From a virus, in the UHGV virus genome UHGV-0087143: a DNA stretch of 11,682 bases; one strand, written 5' to 3'. Below the pieces are notes generated by a model. The model had not been told where the DNA came from. It saw nothing but the letters and a program-made list of their open reading frames with translations, and searched no databases. The position numbers and the translations under genes were made by a program. Position 1 is the stretch's first letter. Each line of letters starts with the position of its first letter. This document shows, in pieces, positions 220 through 11,539 of the stretch.

Positions 220-885
220 ATGAGCAACACTACCGACATCTTAAGCACGATAGCTGATATCACTATGGCTGGTACTGCTGTATGGGCTGCATTCAAAGCT
301 AATGATTGGTTTAAAACCAAGCGTCTTGAGAGTGCTGAAAACTTCTATAAAGAAGTACACAATCTCCATAAACGTTACTATTCAGCTATCCAATACGTTG
401 AGGATTCAAGAAGAATATTTGATAGTCAGTATGGGTTGCATTCGCCAATATCTGAACCTAAAGACAAGTCATTGCAATGGGGGGTTAAATCGAACTCTTA
501 CAAAATCATCGCTGAACTAGATTATCTGGCATCGTCACTACAAATGATGGATGCAATGGGTAACAAACTTAGCCCTAAATCGGCTTCACTGGTTAATGAT
601 ATGATGGAAGCACATGGACGATTCTGTAATGATGTGATGAACTTCAATGACTCAGTTTGGAAGGTTATAAGGGCAGGTATAACTGAAGAGAACATCCCAC
701 ATACGCGAGGCTATGTGAACGGCGATTACATGACTATCCTTACCAGTATGGATGAACCTGTAAGAATATCTTTTAGGTTAAAAGAAATCAGTTTTAAAGA
801 TTTTTACCTGCATGAAACTACTATGCAGTCAGTAATAACGAGGCTGAAATCGCTTATCGCCAGAACAGGTAAAAACAGGACATAA
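220..885 (+). CDS. Hypothetical protein, 221 aa, with N-terminal hydrophobic segment (ILSTIADITMAGTAVWAAF)
   Basis: Long ORF from ATG 220; weak SD-like AGGG 9 nt upstream; no domain recognised by eye. The 302-520 track ORF is nested in another frame and treated as spurious. Confidence 0.6.
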   Translation: MSNTTDILSTIADITMAGTAVWAAFKANDWFKTKRLESAENFYKEVHNLHKRYYSAIQYVEDSRRIFDSQYGLHSPISEPKDKSLQWGVKSNSYKIIAELDYLASSLQMMDAMGNKLSPKSASLVNDMMEAHGRFCNDVMNFNDSVWKVIRAGITEENIPHTRGYVNGDYMTILTSMDEPVRISFRLKEISFKDFYLHETTMQSVITRLKSLIARTGKNRT

Positions 886-897
886 ACAGGTTAGTAC

Positions 898-1015
898 CTA
901 TGCAATTTAAAGGCATTTTCCCAAGTATCTATGCAATCCTACACAGATTCTATGCAGTATCGATATAGTCTCTTTTTAGCGTAACCTATTGAAATATATA
1001 GAGAATCTATGAAGT
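898..1015. repeat. Cluster of four CTATG(C/A)A(A/G)T motifs (898-906, 929-937, 950-958, 1007-1015) plus a diverged ~22-bp direct repeat (965-986, 1011-1032)
   Basis: Read directly: cCTATGCAAT, tCTATGCAAT, tCTATGCAGT, tCTATGAAGT, all same strand; atagtctctttttagcgtaacc vs gaagtctcttttcagggtaaac. Confidence 0.5.
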
Positions 1016-1496
1016 CTCTTTTCAGGGTAAACTGTATCGTGTTAGTCGTCCCTCTCCAGACACTACATACAGTGCTATATACAGGGATATATAACGATAT
1101 ATAGTTGTTTGACCACTACCAATATTCCCTCAAAGTGACTATCAAGCTGCTTAACAGTTTCCCATGTGAAAGTTAGGAGGTGATGGTTATAGTTCCTTCG
1201 TAGTTCCTCTTAAAAAATCACTTGCAGACACCTTAATCTCTATACAGATTTCATGTAGAACACGATTAGTACGTAGAAGAGTCATTATGTTAAAAACACA
1301 CTGTGTTTATATCAGTACTGATTTATAAGGGTTTTGTGTATTGGGTGATAAGAGGCTATACAGCACCTTGAGAGCATGTCTTCTAAGTCATTGACATATA
1401 AGGTCACAGAAGTTTGTGTCTGTTACAGAGAAAACTGGACAGGACTTCACAGAACTATAAAATGTTACAGCTATTGATAGGTGAAATCTTCTTGAT

Positions 1497-1553
1497 AGAT
1501 GCTATGAAGTGTGATGAAGGCTTCTTGAGGTGGAGTTAACAGATGCTATGAAG
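1497..1553. repeat. Two perfect copies of 13-mer AGATGCTATGAAG, 44 bp apart (1497-1509, 1541-1553)
   Basis: Exact 13-bp direct repeat; shares the CTATGAAG core with the 898-1015 cluster. Confidence 0.6.
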
Positions 1554-2028
1554 AAAGTCAATAGTTGGTTATAGATATTTTAACTGCTTTTGCAAAGGGG
1601 GGTGCTATATCGTGAATCTGGGGTACTTAACAGCCATCAATCATGAGGTAGATTAGGGGTTGGTACAAGCCCAACTAACCGAATCAACTGTGTAGATATT
1701 TTTTAAGATTATCGGTGAAGGGGGAATGCAGAGGGGGTACTATGATTTTTATAAAAATTTTCAGAAGCCAAATAACCATTGTACAGATTTTATACAATCC
1801 TACCAAGCCTCATAGTTGATTCGATTAGGTGATTCAGTAATGAATTACTTCATGAAGCTAATCTCATAGAAAGCTCTGTAGCGAGTTTTAACCCCATTTT
1901 TAGGGGTAGTCTATAGGGATGTACCACCCACCTTAAAATAAAGGGGTAAAATCGCTTAGAATGCGTTACAGAGCGTCTGAGAAGCTATATTCACAGATTT
2001 TACTAAAGTCTCAGACTTCTAAGTAGTC

Positions 2029-2338
2029 TTTTTAACAGGAGGGGTTCCCCTATGGTCACATATCCCCTCTCTCGTTTAGTGGCCCTTGATAGCACCCGAT
2101 TAATAACCTAGAGAGTATGCCTGTAAAACTTCTGTATCAGGTCAACTATAAGAGGTCTGGATATTACCTTGTAAGATTCCTGGTAGTGATTATGCAGAGG
2201 GCTTGATAAGAGTGTTTAACGGGAGGAAGAGATATCTTTTTAACAGGAGGGTTCTTTCTCATGTATCACCCTCTCTTCCCGCTAAGTAAGCTACACAGAC
2301 CTAGAGAACATGCCTTCACAGCATCTATATCAGGTCAG
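2029..2338. repeat. Two diverged ~100-115-bp modules (about 2029-2145 and 2237-2338), each beginning TTTTTAACAGGAGGG
   Basis: Shared blocks in the same order: TTTTTAACAGGAGGG, CCCTCTCT(C)..TTAG, CCTAGAGA(G/A)(T/C)ATGCCT, TCT(G/A)TATCAGGTCA. Related CTCT(C)TCCCG(C/T)T(A/T)AG boxes recur at about 2727-2740 and 2910-2923. Confidence 0.6.
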
Positions 2339-2425
2339 ATTTAGAGGGTTTTGATAGAGTCTGTAAAGGTACTTGACAGGTAACTATGAAGTTGCTAGGA
2401 AGAGCTGTTTAACGGGAGGAAGAGA
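2213..2425. repeat. Perfect 20-bp direct repeat TGTTTAACGGGAGGAAGAGA (2213-2232 and 2406-2425)
   Basis: Exact match read in sequence; a related GTTTAACGGGGG lies at 3239-3250. Confidence 0.8.
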
Positions 2426-2847
2426 ACCATGAAACCGAAGGTAGGTTCTGTCTTAACAGTGAAGTCTTAAGAAATGTCTTGAGAGTTACCTAAACAAGCC
2501 TCTTAAGTAAAAGACAACACTCCAGAAAGAGTGTCTGTTTAACAAACTTCTCAAAAGCTCTTAAAAAGTCTGTTAAGAGAGGGCTATGTGAACATATCAT
2601 ACCATTTTGTCAATGCTTTTGTCTTTGACCTAAATCAATAAAATGTATCGTTTGATATGGTTTTAAGCAAGACGGCTAAAAAAATCTTTTTAGAGGGGCG
2701 CTTCGCTTGGGGTCACTATGTTCTTTCTCTCCCGTTAAGAGGGAAGTTACAGGGACATTTCAAAGCCCTGATAAGGTAAGCCCGATGATAACAGAAACAG
2801 AGGGCAAAACCACTTATCAACACTGTGAACGAATAACGTAAAGGGCT

Positions 2848-2884
2848 GGTTAAGAAGGTCGGTTAAGAAGGTCGGTTAAGAAGG
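2848..2884. repeat. Tandem array, about 2.8 copies of 13-bp unit GGTTAAGAAGGTC
   Basis: Copies at 2848-2860 and 2861-2873, partial copy 2874-2884; related TTAAGA(A/G)GG boxes at about 2464, 2570, 2735 and 2932. Confidence 0.8.
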
Positions 2885-2950
2885 GAGCTTCCCTTTCTTG
2901 GGTGTCGCTCTTCTCCCGCTTAGTGGATAGCTAAGAAGGCTTGAAGTTAT

Positions 2951-3126
2951 CTGTGAAGGTACTGGACAGTCTTATATATTGGGTGATTACAACTCGTTGA
3001 AAAATAAGTATTTTTAGAAATCACTGTTAAGGTTACAGAGTCAACTGTGAAGAGACTTGTCAGTTCTCTATATTGGGTGATTACAACTTATTGAAAAGTA
3101 AGAACTTTTAGAAATTACTGTCAGAG
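2951..3126. repeat. Two copies of a ~82-bp direct repeat (2951-3032 and 3045-3126), period 94 bp
   Basis: Identical 20-mer core TATATTGGGTGATTACAACT at 2975-2994 and 3069-3088 with ~85% identical flanks; partial third copy TATTGGGTGAT at 1339-1349; CTGTRAAGGTACTTGACAG-like heads also at 2361-2379. Confidence 0.8.
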
Positions 3127-3240
3127 AGGTGAATACTTGATAGATACAGCTTTCCGGTTCTGTCAAGCTATTTTTTAATAGATAGCACAAAATGCTAAAG
3201 ATACCCCTATACCATCTCGTACAGGGGGGGTTGAAGGAGT

Positions 3241-3429
3241 TTAACGGGGGTCTGTGTGGTTATCTGTTCTGGTCCTGTCCTTGAGGTCAAACGACCATTC
3301 ACGACCAAACAATCTGAACACGATAAACACTCTGACGATGAAATAGCGAAGTAGTAAGCCTGCAATCAGCCCAACACCTCCACCAGCCCATACATCAGGT
3401 GACCCCAGCTCAGGAGGGAGATTTACCAT
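3241..3429 (-). CDS. Small predicted membrane protein, 62 aa (one hydrophobic helix GGGVGLIAGLLLRYFIVRVFIVF, charged C-terminus)
   Basis: Track ORF on minus strand, divergent from the 3633 gene; weak SD GAAGG upstream; candidate promoter upstream. Could still be a chance ORF. Confidence 0.3.
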   Translation of the reverse strand: MVNLPPELGSPDVWAGGGVGLIAGLLLRYFIVRVFIVFRLFGREWSFDLKDRTRTDNHTDPR

Positions 3430-3514
3430 TCAATGTACCTTCTGTGTGCAATGCAAAAAAACATGTGACCATTCTCGATAGCCACGCTTCATATTTTCCC
3501 TCTCCCATAAACCC

Positions 3515-3544
3515 ATTATACCATAAATGTTAATAAATTGTTAA
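3515..3544 (-). promoter_or_regulatory. Candidate sigma70-type promoter (minus strand): TTAACA, 18-nt spacer, extended -10 TGGTATAAT
   Basis: Minus-strand -10 TATAAT is the complement of 3515-3520, TG of the extended -10 at 3522-3523, -35 TTAACA is the complement of 3539-3544. Confidence 0.4.
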
Positions 3545-3551
3545 AAAATAC

Positions 3552-3580
3552 TTGACATTAGTCTTTGAAACTGCTAGTAT
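3552..3580 (+). promoter_or_regulatory. Candidate sigma70-type promoter (plus strand): TTGACA, 17-nt spacer, TAGTAT
   Basis: TTGACA at 3552-3557 and TAGTAT at 3575-3580 with exact 17-bp spacing, ~50 nt upstream of the 3633 start codon. Confidence 0.5.
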
Positions 3581-3632
3581 TGTATATATAGTTAACAGGA
3601 AATTAACAAACACTAAGAGGGTCAGAATATGA

Positions 3633-4187
3633 ATGCAGGATTCAGAATTTAGAGCGATGCTTCAGGCATCAAGAGAACGCAACAAGCACAACTCCTACGC
3701 TTACACAGACACCCCCACCAGCTACGAAGTACCAGCCTTTTCCAAAACCGAACGTAAAAACATTGAAGCGGTCATTCGTAGCATTACGCCACGAGACAGA
3801 TTTATGCCAGTACGCAAAGAAAAAGAGAATACTTTAAAAACTTTCTTGATGAGCTTTGATTCTTACGAGCAACTACCATCAAAAATTGAAGATGTAATTA
3901 TCGGTACTTGTCGCAGTCTTGGAAGAGATAATTATCACCGGAAGGTTTTTTATTTACTGCGAAGTCTTGATGAGATTAGTTCAAGCACAGTGACGAGCCA
4001 TCTTCAAAGACAAGCAACCAGACTTAGCTACGAATTACCAAGTGATAAATATTGCGCTAACTTAGCCACTATTTGCATGAAAGTTATTGAGACAATTAAT
4101 CATCATGCGGAAGTTGGAAATATCAGCCTTACAACCAGTGAACCAGACTTTGAATTTGACGTATACGCACAAGCAGAGGAATTTTAA
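3633..4187 (+). CDS. Hypothetical protein, 184 aa, first gene of a rightward operon
   Basis: ORF with SD AAGAGG (3615-3620) upstream of ATG 3633; no domain recognised. The antisense track ORF 4062-4442 is treated as spurious. Confidence 0.65.
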   Translation: MQDSEFRAMLQASRERNKHNSYAYTDTPTSYEVPAFSKTERKNIEAVIRSITPRDRFMPVRKEKENTLKTFLMSFDSYEQLPSKIEDVIIGTCRSLGRDNYHRKVFYLLRSLDEISSSTVTSHLQRQATRLSYELPSDKYCANLATICMKVIETINHHAEVGNISLTTSEPDFEFDVYAQAEEF

Positions 4188-5324: not shown

Positions 5325-5389
5325 TGGAATTGGTGATTATCTGTTTTGTATTGATTGGTATGATTGCAGGTGCATCTATTAAAGTATAA
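5324..5389 (+). CDS. Possible 21-aa hydrophobic peptide (MELVIICFVLIGMIAGASIKV)
   Basis: ATG overlaps stop of the 107-aa gene (TAATG); strong SD GAAGGTGG 7 nt upstream; entirely hydrophobic. Below the track length cut-off; speculative. Confidence 0.25.
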   Translation: MELVIICFVLIGMIAGASIKV

Positions 5390-5454
5390 ATGTTACCAAT
5401 CTGTTAAAAAGCTGTTGACAAATAACCTTAAGCATGACATAATTTTAATTATGG

Positions 5455-5481
5455 GAGAGTAATTCTCTCTTATATTTTTTT
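5455..5481 (+). terminator. Candidate rho-independent terminator for the 3633-5389 operon
   Basis: Stem GAGAG/CTCTC (5455-5459 / 5465-5469), loop TAATT, followed by TATATTTTTTT. Confidence 0.4.
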
Positions 5482-5659
5482 CAATAATCCGATGGATGGA
5501 TGGATATTCTGAGTTGGTGAGGTATGTTCTATACCGAACATTCTGAAAGGTGCAATGCTTTTCGCTACATGGCCTCTTATATAACCTGAGAGGTCATCTC
5601 GAAAAGTACTCTTGTTCATTCGTTTGAATCCTTCAGAAGTTTTAATTTCTTCACCTTAT

Positions 5660-5702
5660 GAATAGCCCTTTATAAGAAATTATCTAGGGCTATTCAGTTT
5701 TT
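5660..5702 (+). terminator. Candidate stem-loop/terminator: 10-bp stem GAATAGCCCT / AGGGCTATTC, 16-nt loop, then AGTTTTT
   Basis: Perfect 10-bp inverted repeat at 5660-5669 and 5686-5695; T-run only on the plus strand. Confidence 0.35.
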
Positions 5703-5776
5703 AAAAAGCATACTTGGCAAACCGCCTTTTAAGCCTCTTCTAAGTTCGAGGATGTCAGGTGTGCTTTTTAAAAACT
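5696..5776. promoter_or_regulatory. Perfect 15-bp inverted repeat pair AGTTTTTAAAAAGCA (5696-5710) / TGCTTTTTAAAAACT (5762-5776), 51 bp apart; operator-like
   Basis: Exact reverse complements; each contains the palindrome TTTTTAAAAA; ends 36 bp upstream of the 5812 start codon. Confidence 0.4.
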
Positions 5777-5811
5777 GAAACATAAATTATCTTAGAAGAG
5801 GAAAGGTATTA

Positions 5812-6516
5812 ATGGCTATCCGTGATGAAAATGAAATGATTATTGAAAGCCGACCAAGTGCACTTGATATTCACGAATTAACTTTGCGTGAATCTTTTGA
5901 TAGAGCTTGGCGGGAATCACACGAAGTAAATAAAGGTCCATATATTCCACCAGAACCACTCGAGATTCCAAGAGTTGAAATTGATTTTTCTATGAACGAA
6001 CAGTGTGAACTTGATTTGAAGTTGAAGCTACAACGCCGATATTTCCAAGCTATTAAAGACTCTCAAGAAGCAATGAGAAGTGTTTACGAGAAAATTCAGT
6101 CCAAGCTTGAAGACGAAATCGACGAAATGGCTATTTTGATGGAGCTTCAAACCAATTCTTATGCTTATTTCTCTCGACTAGACCGTGACGGTTGGGGGTA
6201 TGACCCTGTAGAGATTGGTAAAGTGATTGCAGATTTACCAGAAGGTCAAAGGGTTATTCGTACGGAAAGGGCCATCAGAGCGCCACATCGACTGTCTCTA
6301 ATTGTTGCTGATAAATCACAAGCTGAGCTTGAAGAAATTGCCAAAGAGAAACTGATGAAAGCAAGAGAAAATGAGATTAATTTGCTGAAATCAAGACTGG
6401 CTAAGCTGATTAGTGACCATCAAGCGCTGGCTAAGGAGTACCGTCAAGAGTTGGCACAGATTATCAGCTTCAATGATTTTCTGAGTGTTCCACGAGAATT
6501 TAGCAAGGCTGTTTGA
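5812..6516 (+). CDS. Hypothetical acidic protein, 234 aa, with C-terminal coiled-coil-like region
   Basis: ORF with SD GAGGAAAGG upstream of ATG 5812; no domain recognised. Confidence 0.65.
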   Translation: MAIRDENEMIIESRPSALDIHELTLRESFDRAWRESHEVNKGPYIPPEPLEIPRVEIDFSMNEQCELDLKLKLQRRYFQAIKDSQEAMRSVYEKIQSKLEDEIDEMAILMELQTNSYAYFSRLDRDGWGYDPVEIGKVIADLPEGQRVIRTERAIRAPHRLSLIVADKSQAELEEIAKEKLMKARENEINLLKSRLAKLISDHQALAKEYRQELAQIISFNDFLSVPREFSKAV

Positions 6517-6893: not shown

Positions 6894-8978
6894 ATGAGCA
6901 AATTTACAGTTGATAGTTTTATTGTTGAGCTGGGCTTCAGTGAAAACGTTATTAAGGGATTGCAAAGAGTTGAAAAGGCAGCTTTGCAGTCAGCACAAAG
7001 AATTGAACGTAATTTGAATAGAGCGTTTAAGGTCGATACCAAGCAACTTGACAGCAATTTAACGGCTTCTTTAAAGTCAATGGAAGGGAAAATTAATAAG
7101 ACCTTTGACAAGATTGAGCAGCGTCTTAAAAACACTAGAGCGTTTAAGATTAAAACGGAAATTGAGGATACTTTAAAGCCACTTAGACAGCCAAGACAGC
7201 CACGAATTAGCGGCAACAGAGCAATCACAGCAGCTTATTCAGCGAATATGAGCAAGTTAAAGGGCTTTGACCCTATTTTGCAGAAATACATCAAATCTCA
7301 GTTTTACGGGCTATCTGCTAAAGCTGGGTCAATGGATAATTCAAAATTCAATGAGAAGTTAGCTCAGCTAAATGCTTCAGTCAGAGAAGCAATCACTAAA
7401 GCCAGAGGTCATACATCCACCAGCAAAAACAATCACAGTGAAAATGCTTCAAATGGTTTAGATGTATTAGCTACAAGTGCAATCAAAGCAGGTACAGCCA
7501 TTTATAGTTTTCAGACAGCCTTAGAAGCTTATAGGAAGGTTATGGAAGTTGGTCTGAAAAAAGAAGCATCACAACGAGCGGCACAATTCGTTTTAGGTGA
7601 TGAAGGTGCTAAACGAGCTACAGAATTTGTTAAGAATCTTGCTGATAGTAGTGGTGTAGACCAGATTGAAACATTAAGCAGTTTTGCTAAGTTTTCCGCT
7701 GGTGCTGGTGATATGAATGCAGACCAGAAAGAATCCTTATTTTCTAATGTGATTGGTACATCCCGACTAATGGGTTTAAGCACTGATGAGATTAACGGGA
7801 TTCTAAAAGCTTTCGAGCAGATGGCGAGCAAGGGCAAGATTCAAGCTGAAGAATTACGCGGTCAGTTAGGGGACAGAATGGCAGGTGCTTTTCAGTTATT
7901 TGCCAGAAGTCTTGGGATGACTACAGAAGAATTAGACAAGGCCATGAAGGACGGTAAGGTTCTTTCTAAAGATGTTCTTCCTAAAGTATCCGCTGAAATG
8001 GGAAGGATGATTGATAAAGCTGGTGGATGGGAAAAGATTATTAACTCTACTCAGACGCAGTTAGGCCGCCTTTCTAATTCATGGAATAATAATCTGGCCT
8101 TAATGTTCGACGGTTCACAGGAAGGTTTAACAGACTTTACAAGGTCACTGACTAATTTACTTAATTCACTAGGTGGTCAATCTAAAAATCTTGGTGAACA
8201 TTTTGGCGACTTGATGAAAAGCATGTCAAACGGTGTTGATGATTTAACCACGATTAGCTACCGAGCACAGGGATTCTTTGACAGAGTGACCCTTGCTTAC
8301 AGAGAATTAAATGACACTCAAAAAGCTGTAGCTGATGGTATCGCAAATGGCCTGTTAAGTGCATTAAAGGGGCTTGCTGGTATAGTCGCTGTAAGGTCTG
8401 GGATTGGTGCTGTAGGTGGTATCTGGAACTTAATTAGGGCTATTTCCACGCTTGGAAATGTAGCAAATACAGCAGCAGGAAGAATCAATTCACGTTCTGC
8501 TGGTAGTGTTGAAGGTGGTAAAGGAAAATTATCTGTAGCTGATGCAATTACCAAAGTAATGATTGTCGGTATGGCAACTGATGTGATTAACTCCATTGTT
8601 AAACCACTCTATGAACGCCAGATGAGTAAGTCAGATAATCCAATTGATAAAGTTGTAAGGTCAAAGGTGGAACCCACAGACCAAGCATTGACTGGTGACA
8701 TGAACTCTTTAGCTGCTGTTTTATGGGCTATGGTTCAGGGCAAATCAAAAGATGTTCCACAGTTTTCACCGGAAGCATTAAATAATCTGAAAGGTCGAGT
8801 GGAAACATTCACACAAGATTTAAAGGTTATCAAGCCGTCAGTAAATATTCAGCCTCAGACAATCAATATCACAACTCAGACGGTACTTGATGGAAAGGTT
8901 ATTGATGAAAGAACCACATCGCATATTAATCGTATGCAGGAAGATACCTTGATTAGCTCAGCTTACCCAGAGGAATAA
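6894..8978 (+). CDS. Phage tail tape measure protein-like, 694 aa
   Basis: Internal segment ...GLSTDEINGILKAFEQMASKGKIQAEELRGQLGDRMAGAFQLFARSLGMTTEELDKAMKDGKV... matches the conserved tape-measure core (ELRGQLGERLPGA-type motif); helical N-terminus and Gly/Ala-rich hydrophobic segment (GIANGLLSALKGLAGIVAVRSGIGAVGGIW) typical of tape measure proteins; SD GAGGTG (6878-6883) before ATG 6894. The four antisense track ORFs inside it are treated as spurious. Confidence 0.8.
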   Translation: MSKFTVDSFIVELGFSENVIKGLQRVEKAALQSAQRIERNLNRAFKVDTKQLDSNLTASLKSMEGKINKTFDKIEQRLKNTRAFKIKTEIEDTLKPLRQPRQPRISGNRAITAAYSANMSKLKGFDPILQKYIKSQFYGLSAKAGSMDNSKFNEKLAQLNASVREAITKARGHTSTSKNNHSENASNGLDVLATSAIKAGTAIYSFQTALEAYRKVMEVGLKKEASQRAAQFVLGDEGAKRATEFVKNLADSSGVDQIETLSSFAKFSAGAGDMNADQKESLFSNVIGTSRLMGLSTDEINGILKAFEQMASKGKIQAEELRGQLGDRMAGAFQLFARSLGMTTEELDKAMKDGKVLSKDVLPKVSAEMGRMIDKAGGWEKIINSTQTQLGRLSNSWNNNLALMFDGSQEGLTDFTRSLTNLLNSLGGQSKNLGEHFGDLMKSMSNGVDDLTTISYRAQGFFDRVTLAYRELNDTQKAVADGIANGLLSALKGLAGIVAVRSGIGAVGGIWNLIRAISTLGNVANTAAGRINSRSAGSVEGGKGKLSVADAITKVMIVGMATDVINSIVKPLYERQMSKSDNPIDKVVRSKVEPTDQALTGDMNSLAAVLWAMVQGKSKDVPQFSPEALNNLKGRVETFTQDLKVIKPSVNIQPQTINITTQTVLDGKVIDERTTSHINRMQEDTLISSAYPEE

Positions 8979-9212
8979 ACAATGTTAGAGCTACTAATAT
9001 TTATTGCCACACATGGCAACCTATTAATCTTTATCTAGTATGACGACTCAACTATGAATAGTCGAATGCTACGTGAAATCTCCTGAACAGATATACCCAC
9101 TGAAAAATAGAATTTACGTAGCTCACGCTTAACAGAGAAAATACTTATATATCAAAGGCTTGGTTAAAAATGACTGAAATACACTAAGTCTTTGAAATCA
9201 AAGGAGAATTTA

Positions 9213-9986
9213 ATGATTTACTCTAATCAGATTCGTTACAGTGGCAAAGATGGCATCTATTTCCACTTAAGAGATAATGTAGATGCCTTCTTAACTTTAT
9301 CAGCAACTGAGAACATGGAATTTGATAGCCCTATGCAGGTGACTACACAGAACATGCAATCAGGGCAAACCGTCACAGATAATGTGCAAAGAGCACCCAG
9401 AACAATCACTATTAGTGGTGTCGTTGTAGTTGGCTATGAAGGAAGCTTATTATTAACTCGTCAGGGTCAATTAGTAGAAAACTTCATCGACACCCTTGAA
9501 AGCTGGCGTGACCAGAAGCAGATTATTTCGGTCATCTGTAAAGATGGTATCAAGATTGATGACTCCATTATTACAAGTTTTAAAGCCTCTAAAGATGTTG
9601 GTATTTCAAATGGTCTAAGAATCCAGCTAACTTTTCAGGAAATTAACTTTAAAGCTGTTGTGGGGCAGACTGATATCTCGGCTGCAACTGGAAAAGCCGC
9701 GACTACGAATGATGGTGGTGTGACCAGTAAAAAGAATGCGGGTAACGTGACCACTGAACGCAATAACGCACCTATGCTGATGTGTCAGGAACTGTACAGT
9801 TACTCAGCATCTGAGCTATCTGATGAAGCGCTAAGGGTCCGTAGCAATTGCTCTAAAAATGTCACGGTGAAAGATGGTGTAAGCACCTTCACAGCCTCAG
9901 CTAATGAGCAGGCTTCAAAAGTGCTTAAGTCGGGTAATGCTTTACGGAAGTTTTCTGTGAATCCGAATAAGAAGGGCACTTATTGA
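9213..9986 (+). CDS. Hypothetical protein, 257 aa, downstream of the tape measure gene (possibly tail-associated by position only)
   Basis: Start chosen at ATG 9213 (SD AAGGAG 6 nt upstream) instead of the in-frame track start at 9192, which is a TTG codon; no domain recognised. Confidence 0.65.
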
Positions 9987-10018: not shown

Positions 10019-11539
10019 TTACAGTTGATAAGCGTCAATATCCAGTAGCTCTTTATCAGCAATTTCAAAGATTGGTGACCCATCATTTAGCGGTAACGGG
10101 TTTGTAGGTATGGTGATTTCAGTGTCGTTCTGTAGCGTTACAGTTACCGAATCCTTACCCAATGTAAGCCCTTTTAGATGTTTGGACAAAATCAACTGAC
10201 ACTCGACACGACCCGCTTTAGTTGTCAGGTCAATATCTTTAAGCTGGGGTAGTTCCTTATCAGTGAGTGAAGCCTTACGCCTCATGTTATCAATAGTAGT
10301 CTGTAGTTCTGTGCGCTTCTGGTTAAGTCCCTTCACCTGTGCTTTCAACTCTGTAATGTCATCCATTTCAAGAAGTAGGGCGGTAGCTTTCTTGATTCTG
10401 GCTGTGACAATTTCAACCTCATGCTGTAGAGATGCAATCTTCCCCTCTGCTTCTCCATCATTCCCCACGTCAATCATCCCCAGAAAATTATCAATCATCC
10501 ATCGGTCAAACGGTTTACGCTTCAACGGTGGAACATCACAGCGACCGTCTAAGTGGTTATTGCACCTGTAGACCCCTGCATACTTATTCTTGGTTCCGGT
10601 AGGATGGACACTAGCCCCACACTGACACCGGAATAATCCCTTGAAGATGTTAATCGTTAATGGGTTATCACTTGCAGGTGTGCGGCCTTTACGATTCTTG
10701 TCGAGAATCTCTTGAGCTTTATTGAACGTTGCAGCATCTATAGCGGCTTCGTAGTAGTTCGGTATAGCGGGGCGGTCATTACGCTGTGATGCTGGTAACG
10801 TGCCTATTGTTGTCTCCGACCTTAAGATGGTGCGTACAGAATGGACGCTAAACCCATTAGCATCTTTACGGCGACTAAACGACTTTATACCGTTGCTTTG
10901 AAGGTGACGGGCGATGTTATGCAGACTTTCACCACTTAGCAGCAGCTTGAAAATCAGTCTTACAGTCTCAGCGTGTTCATTGAGTTTGAGAGTATCGGGG
11001 TCAATCCATCCGGGAACCATCTTTGTTAAACGTTGTTTACCAGCAAGGGCAAGTTTTGCACGTTGTTTCCACTTCTCGCTAACACGGAAAGACTTCTGCT
11101 TACTCTCCTGATGCGCTAGGTAGCTTTTAACCCGCTGAATGATTGAGATTCCTAAATCATCGGATAGAGCATCCCTTGTGTAGATTAGCCCATCCTGTAG
11201 AGTGTGAATCTCGATACCATGAGCAATAATGCGATTCATCAAGGCTTCTGTTTCAAGATGCTCTAATCGGCCTATACGGTCGATACTCTCAACTAGCAGA
11301 ATTGTACCTCCTGGAAACTCCCCAGCCTCAATACGGGCTAACATGTCACCAAACTGACCAGTAAGGTGTTTACCTTTGTAACCGGATAGACCCTCATCAC
11401 TGAAAGACGCTACTACTTGAGCATCGCTATTCTTCTTCAACCATTGTTTGAACAGGTCGTTTTGTCGTCTGGTTGAATCAGCACCTTCAGCACCTTGTGT
11501 GGCTGATGAGAATCTCAAGTATGTTATTACGGTTCTCAC
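10019..11539 (-). CDS. int: Large serine recombinase (serine integrase), 506 aa
   Basis: N-terminal resolvase-type catalytic domain with the serine nucleophile motif (YLRFSSATQ) and downstream LLVESIDRIGR; central recombinase region; Cys-rich zinc-ribbon-like segment (CQCGAS...YRCNNHLDGRCD); C-terminal coiled-coil-like region. GTG start with SD GGGAG 9 nt upstream. Antisense track ORFs 10263-10571 and 10914-11111 treated as spurious. Confidence 0.9.
   Translation of the reverse strand: MRTVITYLRFSSATQGAEGADSTRRQNDLFKQWLKKNSDAQVVASFSDEGLSGYKGKHLTGQFGDMLARIEAGEFPGGTILLVESIDRIGRLEHLETEALMNRIIAHGIEIHTLQDGLIYTRDALSDDLGISIIQRVKSYLAHQESKQKSFRVSEKWKQRAKLALAGKQRLTKMVPGWIDPDTLKLNEHAETVRLIFKLLLSGESLHNIARHLQSNGIKSFSRRKDANGFSVHSVRTILRSETTIGTLPASQRNDRPAIPNYYEAAIDAATFNKAQEILDKNRKGRTPASDNPLTINIFKGLFRCQCGASVHPTGTKNKYAGVYRCNNHLDGRCDVPPLKRKPFDRWMIDNFLGMIDVGNDGEAEGKIASLQHEVEIVTARIKKATALLLEMDDITELKAQVKGLNQKRTELQTTIDNMRRKASLTDKELPQLKDIDLTTKAGRVECQLILSKHLKGLTLGKDSVTVTLQNDTEITIPTNPLPLNDGSPIFEIADKELLDIDAYQL

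Follow-up and report, generated by a model that had tools for sequence, protein, structure and literature searches.

The PLE satellites of Vibrio cholerae combine a large serine integrase with a non-coding region of about 3 kb that holds a replication origin and iterons, and they produce non-coding RNAs in abundance, antisense to the leaders of genes (PMC7567579, PMC8263062). Here we describe an element of similar layout in UHGV virus genome UHGV-0087143, a stretch of 11,682 nt that was analyzed at its full length and is called the window below; all coordinates refer to it unless a phage is named. Our subject is a set of purine-rich boxes (G-boxes) and pyrimidine-rich boxes (C-boxes) in a region without conserved open reading frames (ORFs), the non-coding region (NCR, 886-3205). 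They are arranged in two modules, A (2025-2232) and B (2233-2432). A sequence-only reading of this DNA had proposed either that the boxes head an array of tiny translated leader or toxin-like peptides, or that conservation acts on the DNA or RNA and the reading frames are incidental. Comparison with homologous regions (numbered with an L) speaks firmly for modules that are non-coding, not small-peptide genes. It also gives good support to the NCR as a patterned cis-acting region, whose word grammar matches that of the terminal ORF-less region of Felixounavirus phages and which in addition holds a strand-specific hairpin. That the modules are non-coding cis-acting sequence serving as the DNA-level recognition array of a putative Felix-O1-type phage satellite is, in our estimate, about an even call.

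Like the PLEs, the element is a chromosomal island with a large serine recombinase and an ORF-less region (2.3-3 kb) beside gene clusters, and, as the PLEs are parasites of the lytic myovirus ICP1, its presumed helper is a virulent myovirus. Unlike the PLEs, it has another host and another helper, carries tail genes (tape measure, Dit-like) and is a putative satellite; neither a RepA-like initiator nor a defined iteron set was found in it. The first approximately 100 and last approximately 80 bases of the window match the yciI-tonB locus, which 5,423 of the 5,426 complete E. coli genomes have, and the island is an insertion of about 11.5 kb between these two genes. Homologues of the NCR occur in 438 of the 5,426 genomes (8%), with up to five copies per genome, and relatives of the island occupy at least three chromosomal sites, yciI-tonB, yecE/cmoA and ymdF-rutG.

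Although gene-free, the NCR is evidently under selection. Its longest ORF has 44 codons at most; the region is nonetheless kept in every island, across three insertion sites, and its identity among 48 loci (80-96%) is equal to or above that of the neighbouring genes. The words over-represented in it are strongly one-stranded. Among the 60 records listed, 52 have no annotated feature under the NCR match, and the other eight overlap a DNA methyltransferase gene. An island family found in roughly one in twelve E. coli genomes carries a conserved, patterned region without genes.

One element of the pattern is a dyad-ended 8-mer, CTNNNNAG, of which the NCR holds 49 copies, compared with 13.5±3.5 expected from dinucleotide-preserving resampling (500 rounds). 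This corresponds to 21 copies per kb, as against 5-8 per kb in the rest of the window. The copies are phased: nine pairs are spaced by exactly 11 nt and eleven by 10-12 nt, where 0.2 would be expected and none of the 500 resamplings reached that number. Doublets of the form CTN4AG-N2-4-CTN4AG number 11 in the NCR and 2 in the other 9.3 kb, and the homologous NCRs contain 32-52 copies of the 8-mer and 5-17 doublets each. TTAAC words are packed into the NCR beside the 8-mers. Dense, helically phased short repeats are hence confined to the gene-free region of the island.

The boxes are part of these arrays. Four phased 8-mers lie in module B at 2361-2402 (CTGTAAAG, CTTGACAG, CTATGAAG and CTAGGAAG, their starts being separated by 11, 12 and 11 nt), and the start of the following G-box2, CTGTTTAA, comes 10 nt after them, in phase; the equivalent array of module A is found at approximately 2168-2209. 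G-box1 begins with a degenerate 8-mer, CTTTTTAA, whose paralogue at 2686 is a true CTTTTTAG. As these starts show, each G-box is a degenerate array unit (CTKTTTAA) to which C and a purine run are added. Direct repeats phased by one helical turn are likewise a feature of plasmid iterons and of parC centromeres (R1 parC, 11-bp iterons), and such phasing suggests cooperative binding on one face of the DNA. Unlike iterons and parC, the NCR has its 49 sites spread over 2.3 kb, mostly as doublets and without a compact array, and no cognate Rep or ParR was recognised.

The same grammar is concentrated in one part of Felixounavirus genomes. In phage wV8 (L049), an unannotated ORF-less stretch at phage coordinates 13885-15531 contains 63 copies of CTNNNNAG (38 per kb, genome mean 10 per kb), with spacing peaks at 10-11, 21-22 and 31-33 nt, and 27 of the 95 doublets of the genome. 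This stretch, 1.9% of the genome, also holds 15 of the 51 copies of CTTAACA (0.9 expected), 20 of the 131 copies of TTAACA (2.4 expected) and 39 of the 330 11-mers common to the NCR and wV8 (6.1 expected). Conservation of the phage ORF-less region extends over 257 records. The ends of several Felixounavirus records fall within it, and the record of Salmonella phage UAB_69 annotates a 618-bp direct terminal repeat (DTR) inside it; it is by this depositor's annotation and by the record boundaries that we place the phage terminus here. In UAB_69 (L051, 601-2200), the arrays span the DTR and both flanks and stop at the flanking genes, and three CTTAACA units, 11 nt apart, stand at the left boundary of the DTR. 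Phased repeats in a gene-free region are therefore common to the island, wV8 and UAB_69. The likeness comprises dense CTNNNNAG, 10-11-nt phasing, enrichment of (C)TTAACA, absence of genes and a size of 1.6-2.3 kb. We found no description of a role for the phage arrays in the searchable literature, itself incomplete, and the Felix O1 genome paper makes no mention of the ORF-less region (PMC3185647).

A second connection between island and phage is given by the tail genes. Part of the Dit-like gene (500 nt, within 9237-9746) is 95% identical to more than 200 Felixounavirus genomes, and the best matches of the tape measure protein, at 30% amino-acid identity, are also from Felixounavirus, where they adjoin the phage copy of the same Dit-like gene. 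The discrepancy between 95% nucleotide identity in the Dit part and about 30% protein identity in the tape measure suggests that island and phage have recently exchanged a single segment of their tail genes.

Phage T7 provides an analogy, in arrays whose function is itself unsettled. An inverted repeat near the T7 terminal repeat is said to form a strand-specific DNA hairpin in end formation or concatemer processing, and regularly spaced short repeats (SRL/SRR) reportedly flank the terminal repeat, in work attributed to Dunn and Studier (1983) and to Chung, Nardone and Hinkle (1990). Repeats and hairpin resemble the island arrays and the strand-specific palindrome of 133 nt described below, by analogy only, as sequences and phage family are unrelated. 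Relative to satellite non-coding regions, terminus repeat arrays and iteron arrays, the NCR is a variant and constitutes no new category.

Because the same grammar is concentrated in the Felixounavirus terminal-repeat region, a DNA-level recognition array is the most likely role of the modules. After excision of the island, proteins of the helper phage or of the island itself would act on the CTNNNNAG/TTAAC arrays for packaging and/or replication. The modules would in this way probably help the island to exploit a Felix-O1-type phage. Embedded beside G-box2 is a strand-specific domain, composed of hairpin H2 and a 133-nt rod, which would be a leftward RNA or a single-stranded DNA hairpin. Satellite status, helper identity, a binding protein and the packaging or replication role are what we infer here. 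More tentatively, the island may belong to an undescribed PLE-like satellite family in which the NCR mimics the terminal-repeat region of the helper and recruits its packaging or replication machinery, and in which the island tail proteins remodel the helper tail; this extended version we hold to be possible but rather doubtful. Should the island prove to be a satellite, Vibrio PLE/ICP1 would have a counterpart in enterobacteria, and there would be a testable handle on how Felix-O1-type genomes are recognized for end formation and packaging. Felix-O1-type phages are widely used for typing and biocontrol, and such a satellite could alter phage efficacy against E. coli strains that carry the island.

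Several observations weigh against a recognition array of this kind. By blastn, the NCR has no alignable similarity to the phage records, and comparison with wV8 yields short word matches only, such that the link between the two consists of word grammar and significant enrichment, not homology. The inner bases of the 8-mer are A/T-rich in wV8 and contain more G/C in the island; accordingly, the binding protein need not be the same in phage and island. For the complete G-box word, TTTAACRGG, wV8 shows no enrichment, and neither of its two copies there lies in the ORF-less region. Among the island proteins, we identified no binding protein, replication initiator or terminase subunit, and no replication-initiator domain in any of them. 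The module core, 2290-2405, reveals no significant conserved structure shared by the A and B types on either strand, and the constraint acting on it is consequently not directly identified. Finally, the Shine-Dalgarno (SD)-to-ATG spacing is strong in two independent G-box1 alleles and one G-box2 allele, which a model based on DNA alone leaves unexplained.

The modules themselves are built as follows. G-box1 is the 17-nt sequence TCTTTTTAACAGGAGGG, composed of the degenerate 8-mer, C and the purine run, and is present on the plus strand in two exact copies, at 2027-2043 in module A and 2235-2251 in module B. G-box2 (TGTTTAACGGGAGGAAGAGA) likewise forms an exact plus-strand pair at 2213-2232 and 2406-2425; among 35 variants of the latter copy, TTTAAC is invariant and the purine tail variable. 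Read on the minus strand, this copy is a CU-rich tract just 3' of the hairpin domain. The C-boxes lie on the plus strand at 2064-2079 in module A (CCCCTCTCTCGTTTAG) and 2269-2286 in module B (CCCTCTCTTCCCGCTAAG), and are complementary to the G-boxes. The word TTTAACRGGAGG occurs in four copies (0.08 expected), a count reached in none of 200 shuffles. GGAGG-N4-10-ATG is less exceptional, with four occurrences in the window, three of them in this region, where 1.68 would be expected and 14 of 200 shuffles reached four.

Modules A and B are approximately 70% identical (72% for 2106-2163 against 2299-2356), and the comparison of islands identifies them as a tandem duplication. Of the 49 homologous regions that were oriented, all carry a single module except the window, L001 and L003, which carry two. 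A and B are two allelic forms, each of which stands alone in other islands; L028, for example, has the A type only. Module B holds the position common to all islands, about 400 to 195 nt upstream of a conserved anchor at 2627-2650, and module A is the extra tandem copy, an allelic variant that is the sole copy elsewhere. As a consequence of the duplication, the two G-box1/ATG pairs of the window are not independent. Two further paralogous purine/pyrimidine-box units follow. The third, at 2683-2745, holds the ATG at 2718, and its pyrimidine arm pairs with a downstream GGGAAG (CTTCCC/GGGAAG, CTCCC/GGGAG and CTCTC/GAGAG, matched by eye and unscored). The fourth, at 2872-2928 (TTAAGAAGGGAG ... CTCTTCTCCCGCTTAG), has no ATG.

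The antisense RNAs of P4 (CI) and of P1 and P7 (c4) have pyrimidine-rich segments complementary to repeated purine-rich ribosome-binding site (RBS) boxes in the same region, and the island has complementary G-boxes and C-boxes within one non-coding region. Differences to P4 CI and P1 c4 are that sizes and layout do not agree, that no covariance-model match was obtained and that no target RBS was identified. Folded singly, the purine/pyrimidine units gave non-significant z-scores on both strands. Clean covariation between G-boxes and C-boxes was not found, and a tally over the variants revealed only a weak association of G-box1 type with C-box type. A long-range pairing of C-box and G-box2 was predicted by folding and dropped, as covariation gave it no support.

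All boxes, the ATGs at 2052, 2261, 2429 and 2718 and the translations quoted in the sequence-only reading are present in the DNA. What fails among the homologues is their common interpretation as genes: in about 40 islands the boxes are kept, and frames, lengths and ATGs are not, a pattern that the sequence-only reading had itself listed as speaking against its peptides. G-box1 is found in 31 of 38 distinct variants of the segment, and the ORFs that follow it encode 20 different peptides of 7-40 aa, e.g., MVTISSFPAK*, MVTYSLSSH*, MYPPSSR* and MVTISPLSR*. The common C-box is read in different frames, for instance as TTC CCG CTA AGT and as TTT CCC GCT AAG TAA. One G-box1 variant has ATT in place of ATG, and in one island type (L007, L020, L031 and L032) the element is replaced by an unrelated hairpin, GATGCTC...GAGCATC. 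The ATG at 2429, after G-box2, is missing in 15 of the 25 variants listed and sits in the loop of a conserved hairpin; after the first GTTTAACGGGAGGAAGAG box, at 2213-2232, there is no ATG at all, and module B follows instead. The peptide similarity PL(F)(P)LS(R/K)L exists, yet it is a translation of the conserved pyrimidine boxes, that of module A giving PLSRL and that of module B PLFPLSKL. The alternative that had been offered alongside the peptides, conservation of DNA or RNA with an incidental frame, is thereby supported.

Codon-level analysis leads to the same result. We scanned every ORF of at least 12 aa in 886-3640, and none of the small ORFs within 886-3205 has a clear coding signature: they are disrupted in many homologues, or change mostly at non-synonymous positions, or have too few differences to judge. 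In the ORFs behind the proposed peptides, at most seven codon differences are available. The 27-aa ORF at 2261-2344 is intact in four of five close relatives with six synonymous and one non-synonymous changes; we regard this ratio as noise, because an antisense ORF that overlaps it, 2266-2319, gives a similar one (4:1). The positive control, by comparison, behaves as a gene: a 62-aa ORF on the minus strand (3241-3429) is unbroken in all of its homologues (33 of 33), where 44 differences are synonymous and 14 non-synonymous. We therefore firmly consider the SD-like appearance, the ATGs and the peptide similarity to be by-products of purine boxes and complementary pyrimidine boxes. The framing as tiny-peptide genes is a false lead, and to have it marked as such saves effort.

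Structure prediction, also proposed in the sequence-only reading, had a divided outcome: it yielded nothing for the module core and a clear signal for two hairpins beside G-box2. A consensus computed along the NCR on a gappy global alignment was uninformative; a scan based on local alignments singled out just four segments, 1680-1819, 1860-1999, 2400-2539 and 3120-3319. Compensatory pairing beyond controls was found for H2 and for the rod at 2448-2580, not for the core. Hairpin H2 (2420-2454, minus strand) has the ATG at 2429 in its loop. Its 5-bp outer stem exists in three alleles, all perfectly complementary (GAACC/GGTTC, GATAC/GTATC and GTAAC/GTTAC), with three pairs changed on both sides in 14-16 sequences, and the minus strand has UUCG in the apical loop, where the plus strand has GAA.

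The rod-like domain of 133 nt (2448-2580, minus strand) occurs in two very divergent allelic forms, and many distinct sequences fold to the same nested architecture. A covariance model, R1, built from 26 sequences of one form aligned all 47 loci, with the other form scoring 56-81 bits. In this alignment, which was fitted to the minus-strand model and thus favours that strand, 98.4% of 1,151 cells pair (33 pairs). Changes on both sides affect eight of the 33 pairs (57 cells), for the most part as differences between two lineages. A covariation score of 0.232 was obtained, compared with 0.134 for shuffles (none of 500 reached it) and at most 0.065 for slid partners. Since 143 cells are G·U and only six A·C, pairing on the plus strand would drop to 86.5%. 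Folding of 2400-2592 gave -50 kcal/mol and z = -2.99 for the minus strand, compared with z = -1.36 for the plus strand, and the minus strand folds better in 25 of 34 variants. Compensatory pairs, the imbalance of G·U over A·C and the fold z-scores together indicate that selection acts on pairing within a single minus strand, and the domain may be a leftward non-coding RNA or, alternatively, a hairpin of single-stranded DNA. Searched against the phage, the hairpin model gave weak hits only, which cluster at the left boundary of the DTR. Just upstream of the rod, a promoter-like site facing left (2596-2625, minus strand; AAGACA, 18 nt, extended -10 TGgTATGAT) is recognizable by consensus match only. 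It lies in the most conserved block of the NCR, which is conserved in all 43 distinct sequences.

These features lend themselves to a serious rival, or complement, of the recognition array with which they are compatible: a leftward regulatory RNA from the minus strand. We regard it as possible, although on balance improbable. Such an RNA would start near 2589 at the promoter-like site, fold to rod and H2, and expose the CU-rich complements of the G-boxes (CUCUUCCUCCCGUUAAACA, CCCUCCUGUUAAAAAG), which mimic the anti-Shine-Dalgarno sequence of 16S rRNA and whose pairing partners would be purine-rich leaders or the RNA's own purine boxes. The antisense immunity RNAs of P4 (CI) and P1 (c4) and the inter-inverted-repeat transcript of the PLEs operate in this manner. 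The strand bias of rod pairing and folding, the UUCG loop of H2 and the conserved promoter-like site speak for it, as do the G-box2 complement, unpaired in the minimum-energy fold, and a G/A polymorphism of the C-box, tolerable as G·U on the minus strand only. Non-coding RNA antisense to gene leaders has a precedent in the PLEs (PMC7567579). Yet the hairpin could equally be single-stranded DNA, and the alignment from which the pairing bias is counted was fitted to the minus strand. Further, the module core has no conserved minus-strand structure (z = -0.2), an intrinsic terminator for a 3' end was not found, and the search for targets returned nothing convincing: the match to the operon leader spans only 7-9 nt, and no real gene's RBS was identified. 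Rfam gave no match in the whole window at gathering thresholds, and in 850-3700 at E up to 10 two chance-level hits only, with no C4 antisense, GOLLD or ROOL family among them. If, in contrast, the transcript runs on the plus strand, the G-boxes could be real ribosome sites for arbitrary short ORFs, the act of translation controlling the transcript, e.g., by shielding untranslated RNA from Rho or by opening a hairpin of G-box and C-box. Leader ORFs of this kind, eta and icd, are known from the immunity systems of P4 and P1, where translation matters and the product does not. This explanation we consider unlikely. It would account for the SD-ATG arrangement, which occurs three times here and once elsewhere in the window, and for an ATG placed 6-10 nt after G-box1 in 30 of the 31 box-bearing variants, across two spacer sequences; the two G-box1 alleles, however, amount to only two independent observations. 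A hairpin with the C-box can hide G-box1, and in its G-richness and positive GC skew the plus strand resembles the sense strand of the island genes. Consensus folds of the core also come out somewhat better on the plus strand (z = -1.7) than on the minus strand (z = -0.2). Against it stand the ORFs of 7-40 aa with shifting frames, the variant without ATG and the island type without the element, and the G-box2 ATG, which is absent in most variants and otherwise enclosed in a conserved hairpin. The third unit has its ATG at a non-homologous position and the fourth has none. A consensus scan detected no conserved plus-strand promoter immediately upstream, and only poor sigma-70 promoters within the modules.

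Two explanations remain for which we see very little room. If the NCR were decaying junk, i.e., remnants of old gene starts or intergenic cassettes, its mosaic make-up of allelic segments, duplications and variable repeat numbers would be expected. Conservation at or above the level of the adjacent genes across 48 loci, retention in every island at three insertion sites, compensatory evolution in the rod and a motif phasing far beyond chance render this highly improbable. Even less credence is due to small functional peptides (leader, type I toxin or microprotein) encoded by the modules, despite the well-spaced SD-like boxes before the ATGs and the favourable 6:1 ratio of ORF 2261-2344 with its four intact relatives. 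The 20 different products, the reading of common nucleotides in different frames and the similar ratio of the antisense ORF all contradict it, and the peptides lack a hydrophobic segment of the type I toxin kind. The DNA-level recognition array, with the minus-strand hairpin as an embedded domain, is thus the reading that we retain.

Some further candidates were considered and left unsupported: boxA/nut antitermination sites, a CsrA sponge RNA, a ColE1-like RNA-primed origin, and inversion by a small recombinase via inverted copies of 1873-2018. A decayed tRNA array was dismissed, as a tRNA scan found none. Two words within the arms of the 133-nt hairpin are worth recording: GCTCTTAAAAA at 2556-2566 recalls what we take to be the core of the lambda nutR boxA, and TCTGTTTAACAA at 2533-2544 what is presumably the rrn boxA; both may be coincidences.

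Beyond the NCR, the island has a variable ORF at its left end (220-885) and, from 3633 onwards, a block of small proteins of unrecognised function. Its tail genes encode a tape measure protein (6894-8978; PF20155, phrog_4036) and a Dit-like protein (9192-9986; PF21821), and a large serine recombinase with Resolvase, Recombinase and Zn_ribbon_recom domains (phrog_95) is encoded on the minus strand at 10019-11539. Apart from the tape measure protein, the Dit-like protein and the integrase, no island protein was identified by searches with Pfam, PHROGs, NCBIfam and PADLOC, and no capsid, terminase, replication or defence protein was recognised. In the searchable literature, itself incomplete, we found no description of this island family or of a Felix-O1 satellite. 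The family occurs in E. albertii, too. The cargo to the left of the NCR varies among islands and may be a 221-aa ORF, a small serine recombinase, an AP2-like protein or an adenine methyltransferase.

Within the NCR, three tandem 13-nt repeats (GGTCGGTTAAGAA) at 2848-2886 vary in copy number and sequence among islands. Two tandem 94-nt repeats at 2945-3121, 82% identical, are kept in all islands, and each bears a CTGTGAAG-N3-CTGGACAG doublet and a TTGGGTGAT word. The segment 1860-1990 is very stable, with a minus-strand fold of -43 kcal/mol (z = -4.0) and an alignment z of approximately -4.2 on both strands; in L001, L003, L005 and L007, the interval between the HNH gene and the gene after it holds a copy of 1873-2018 in inverted orientation, about 70% identical.

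The 62-aa ORF at 3241-3429 on the minus strand is the only small ORF in or beside the NCR with a clear coding signature. It has a hydrophobic segment, is divergent from the operon promoter at 3552-3580 and is associated with a terminator-like hairpin at 3204-3227, for which L007 has the exact inverted sequence, with the stem preserved. A second gene-free stretch, 5325-5811 (488 nt), contains a near-consensus promoter (TTGACA, 17 nt, CATAAT) and lies upstream of a gene at 5812-6516 that is called a transposase in some records.

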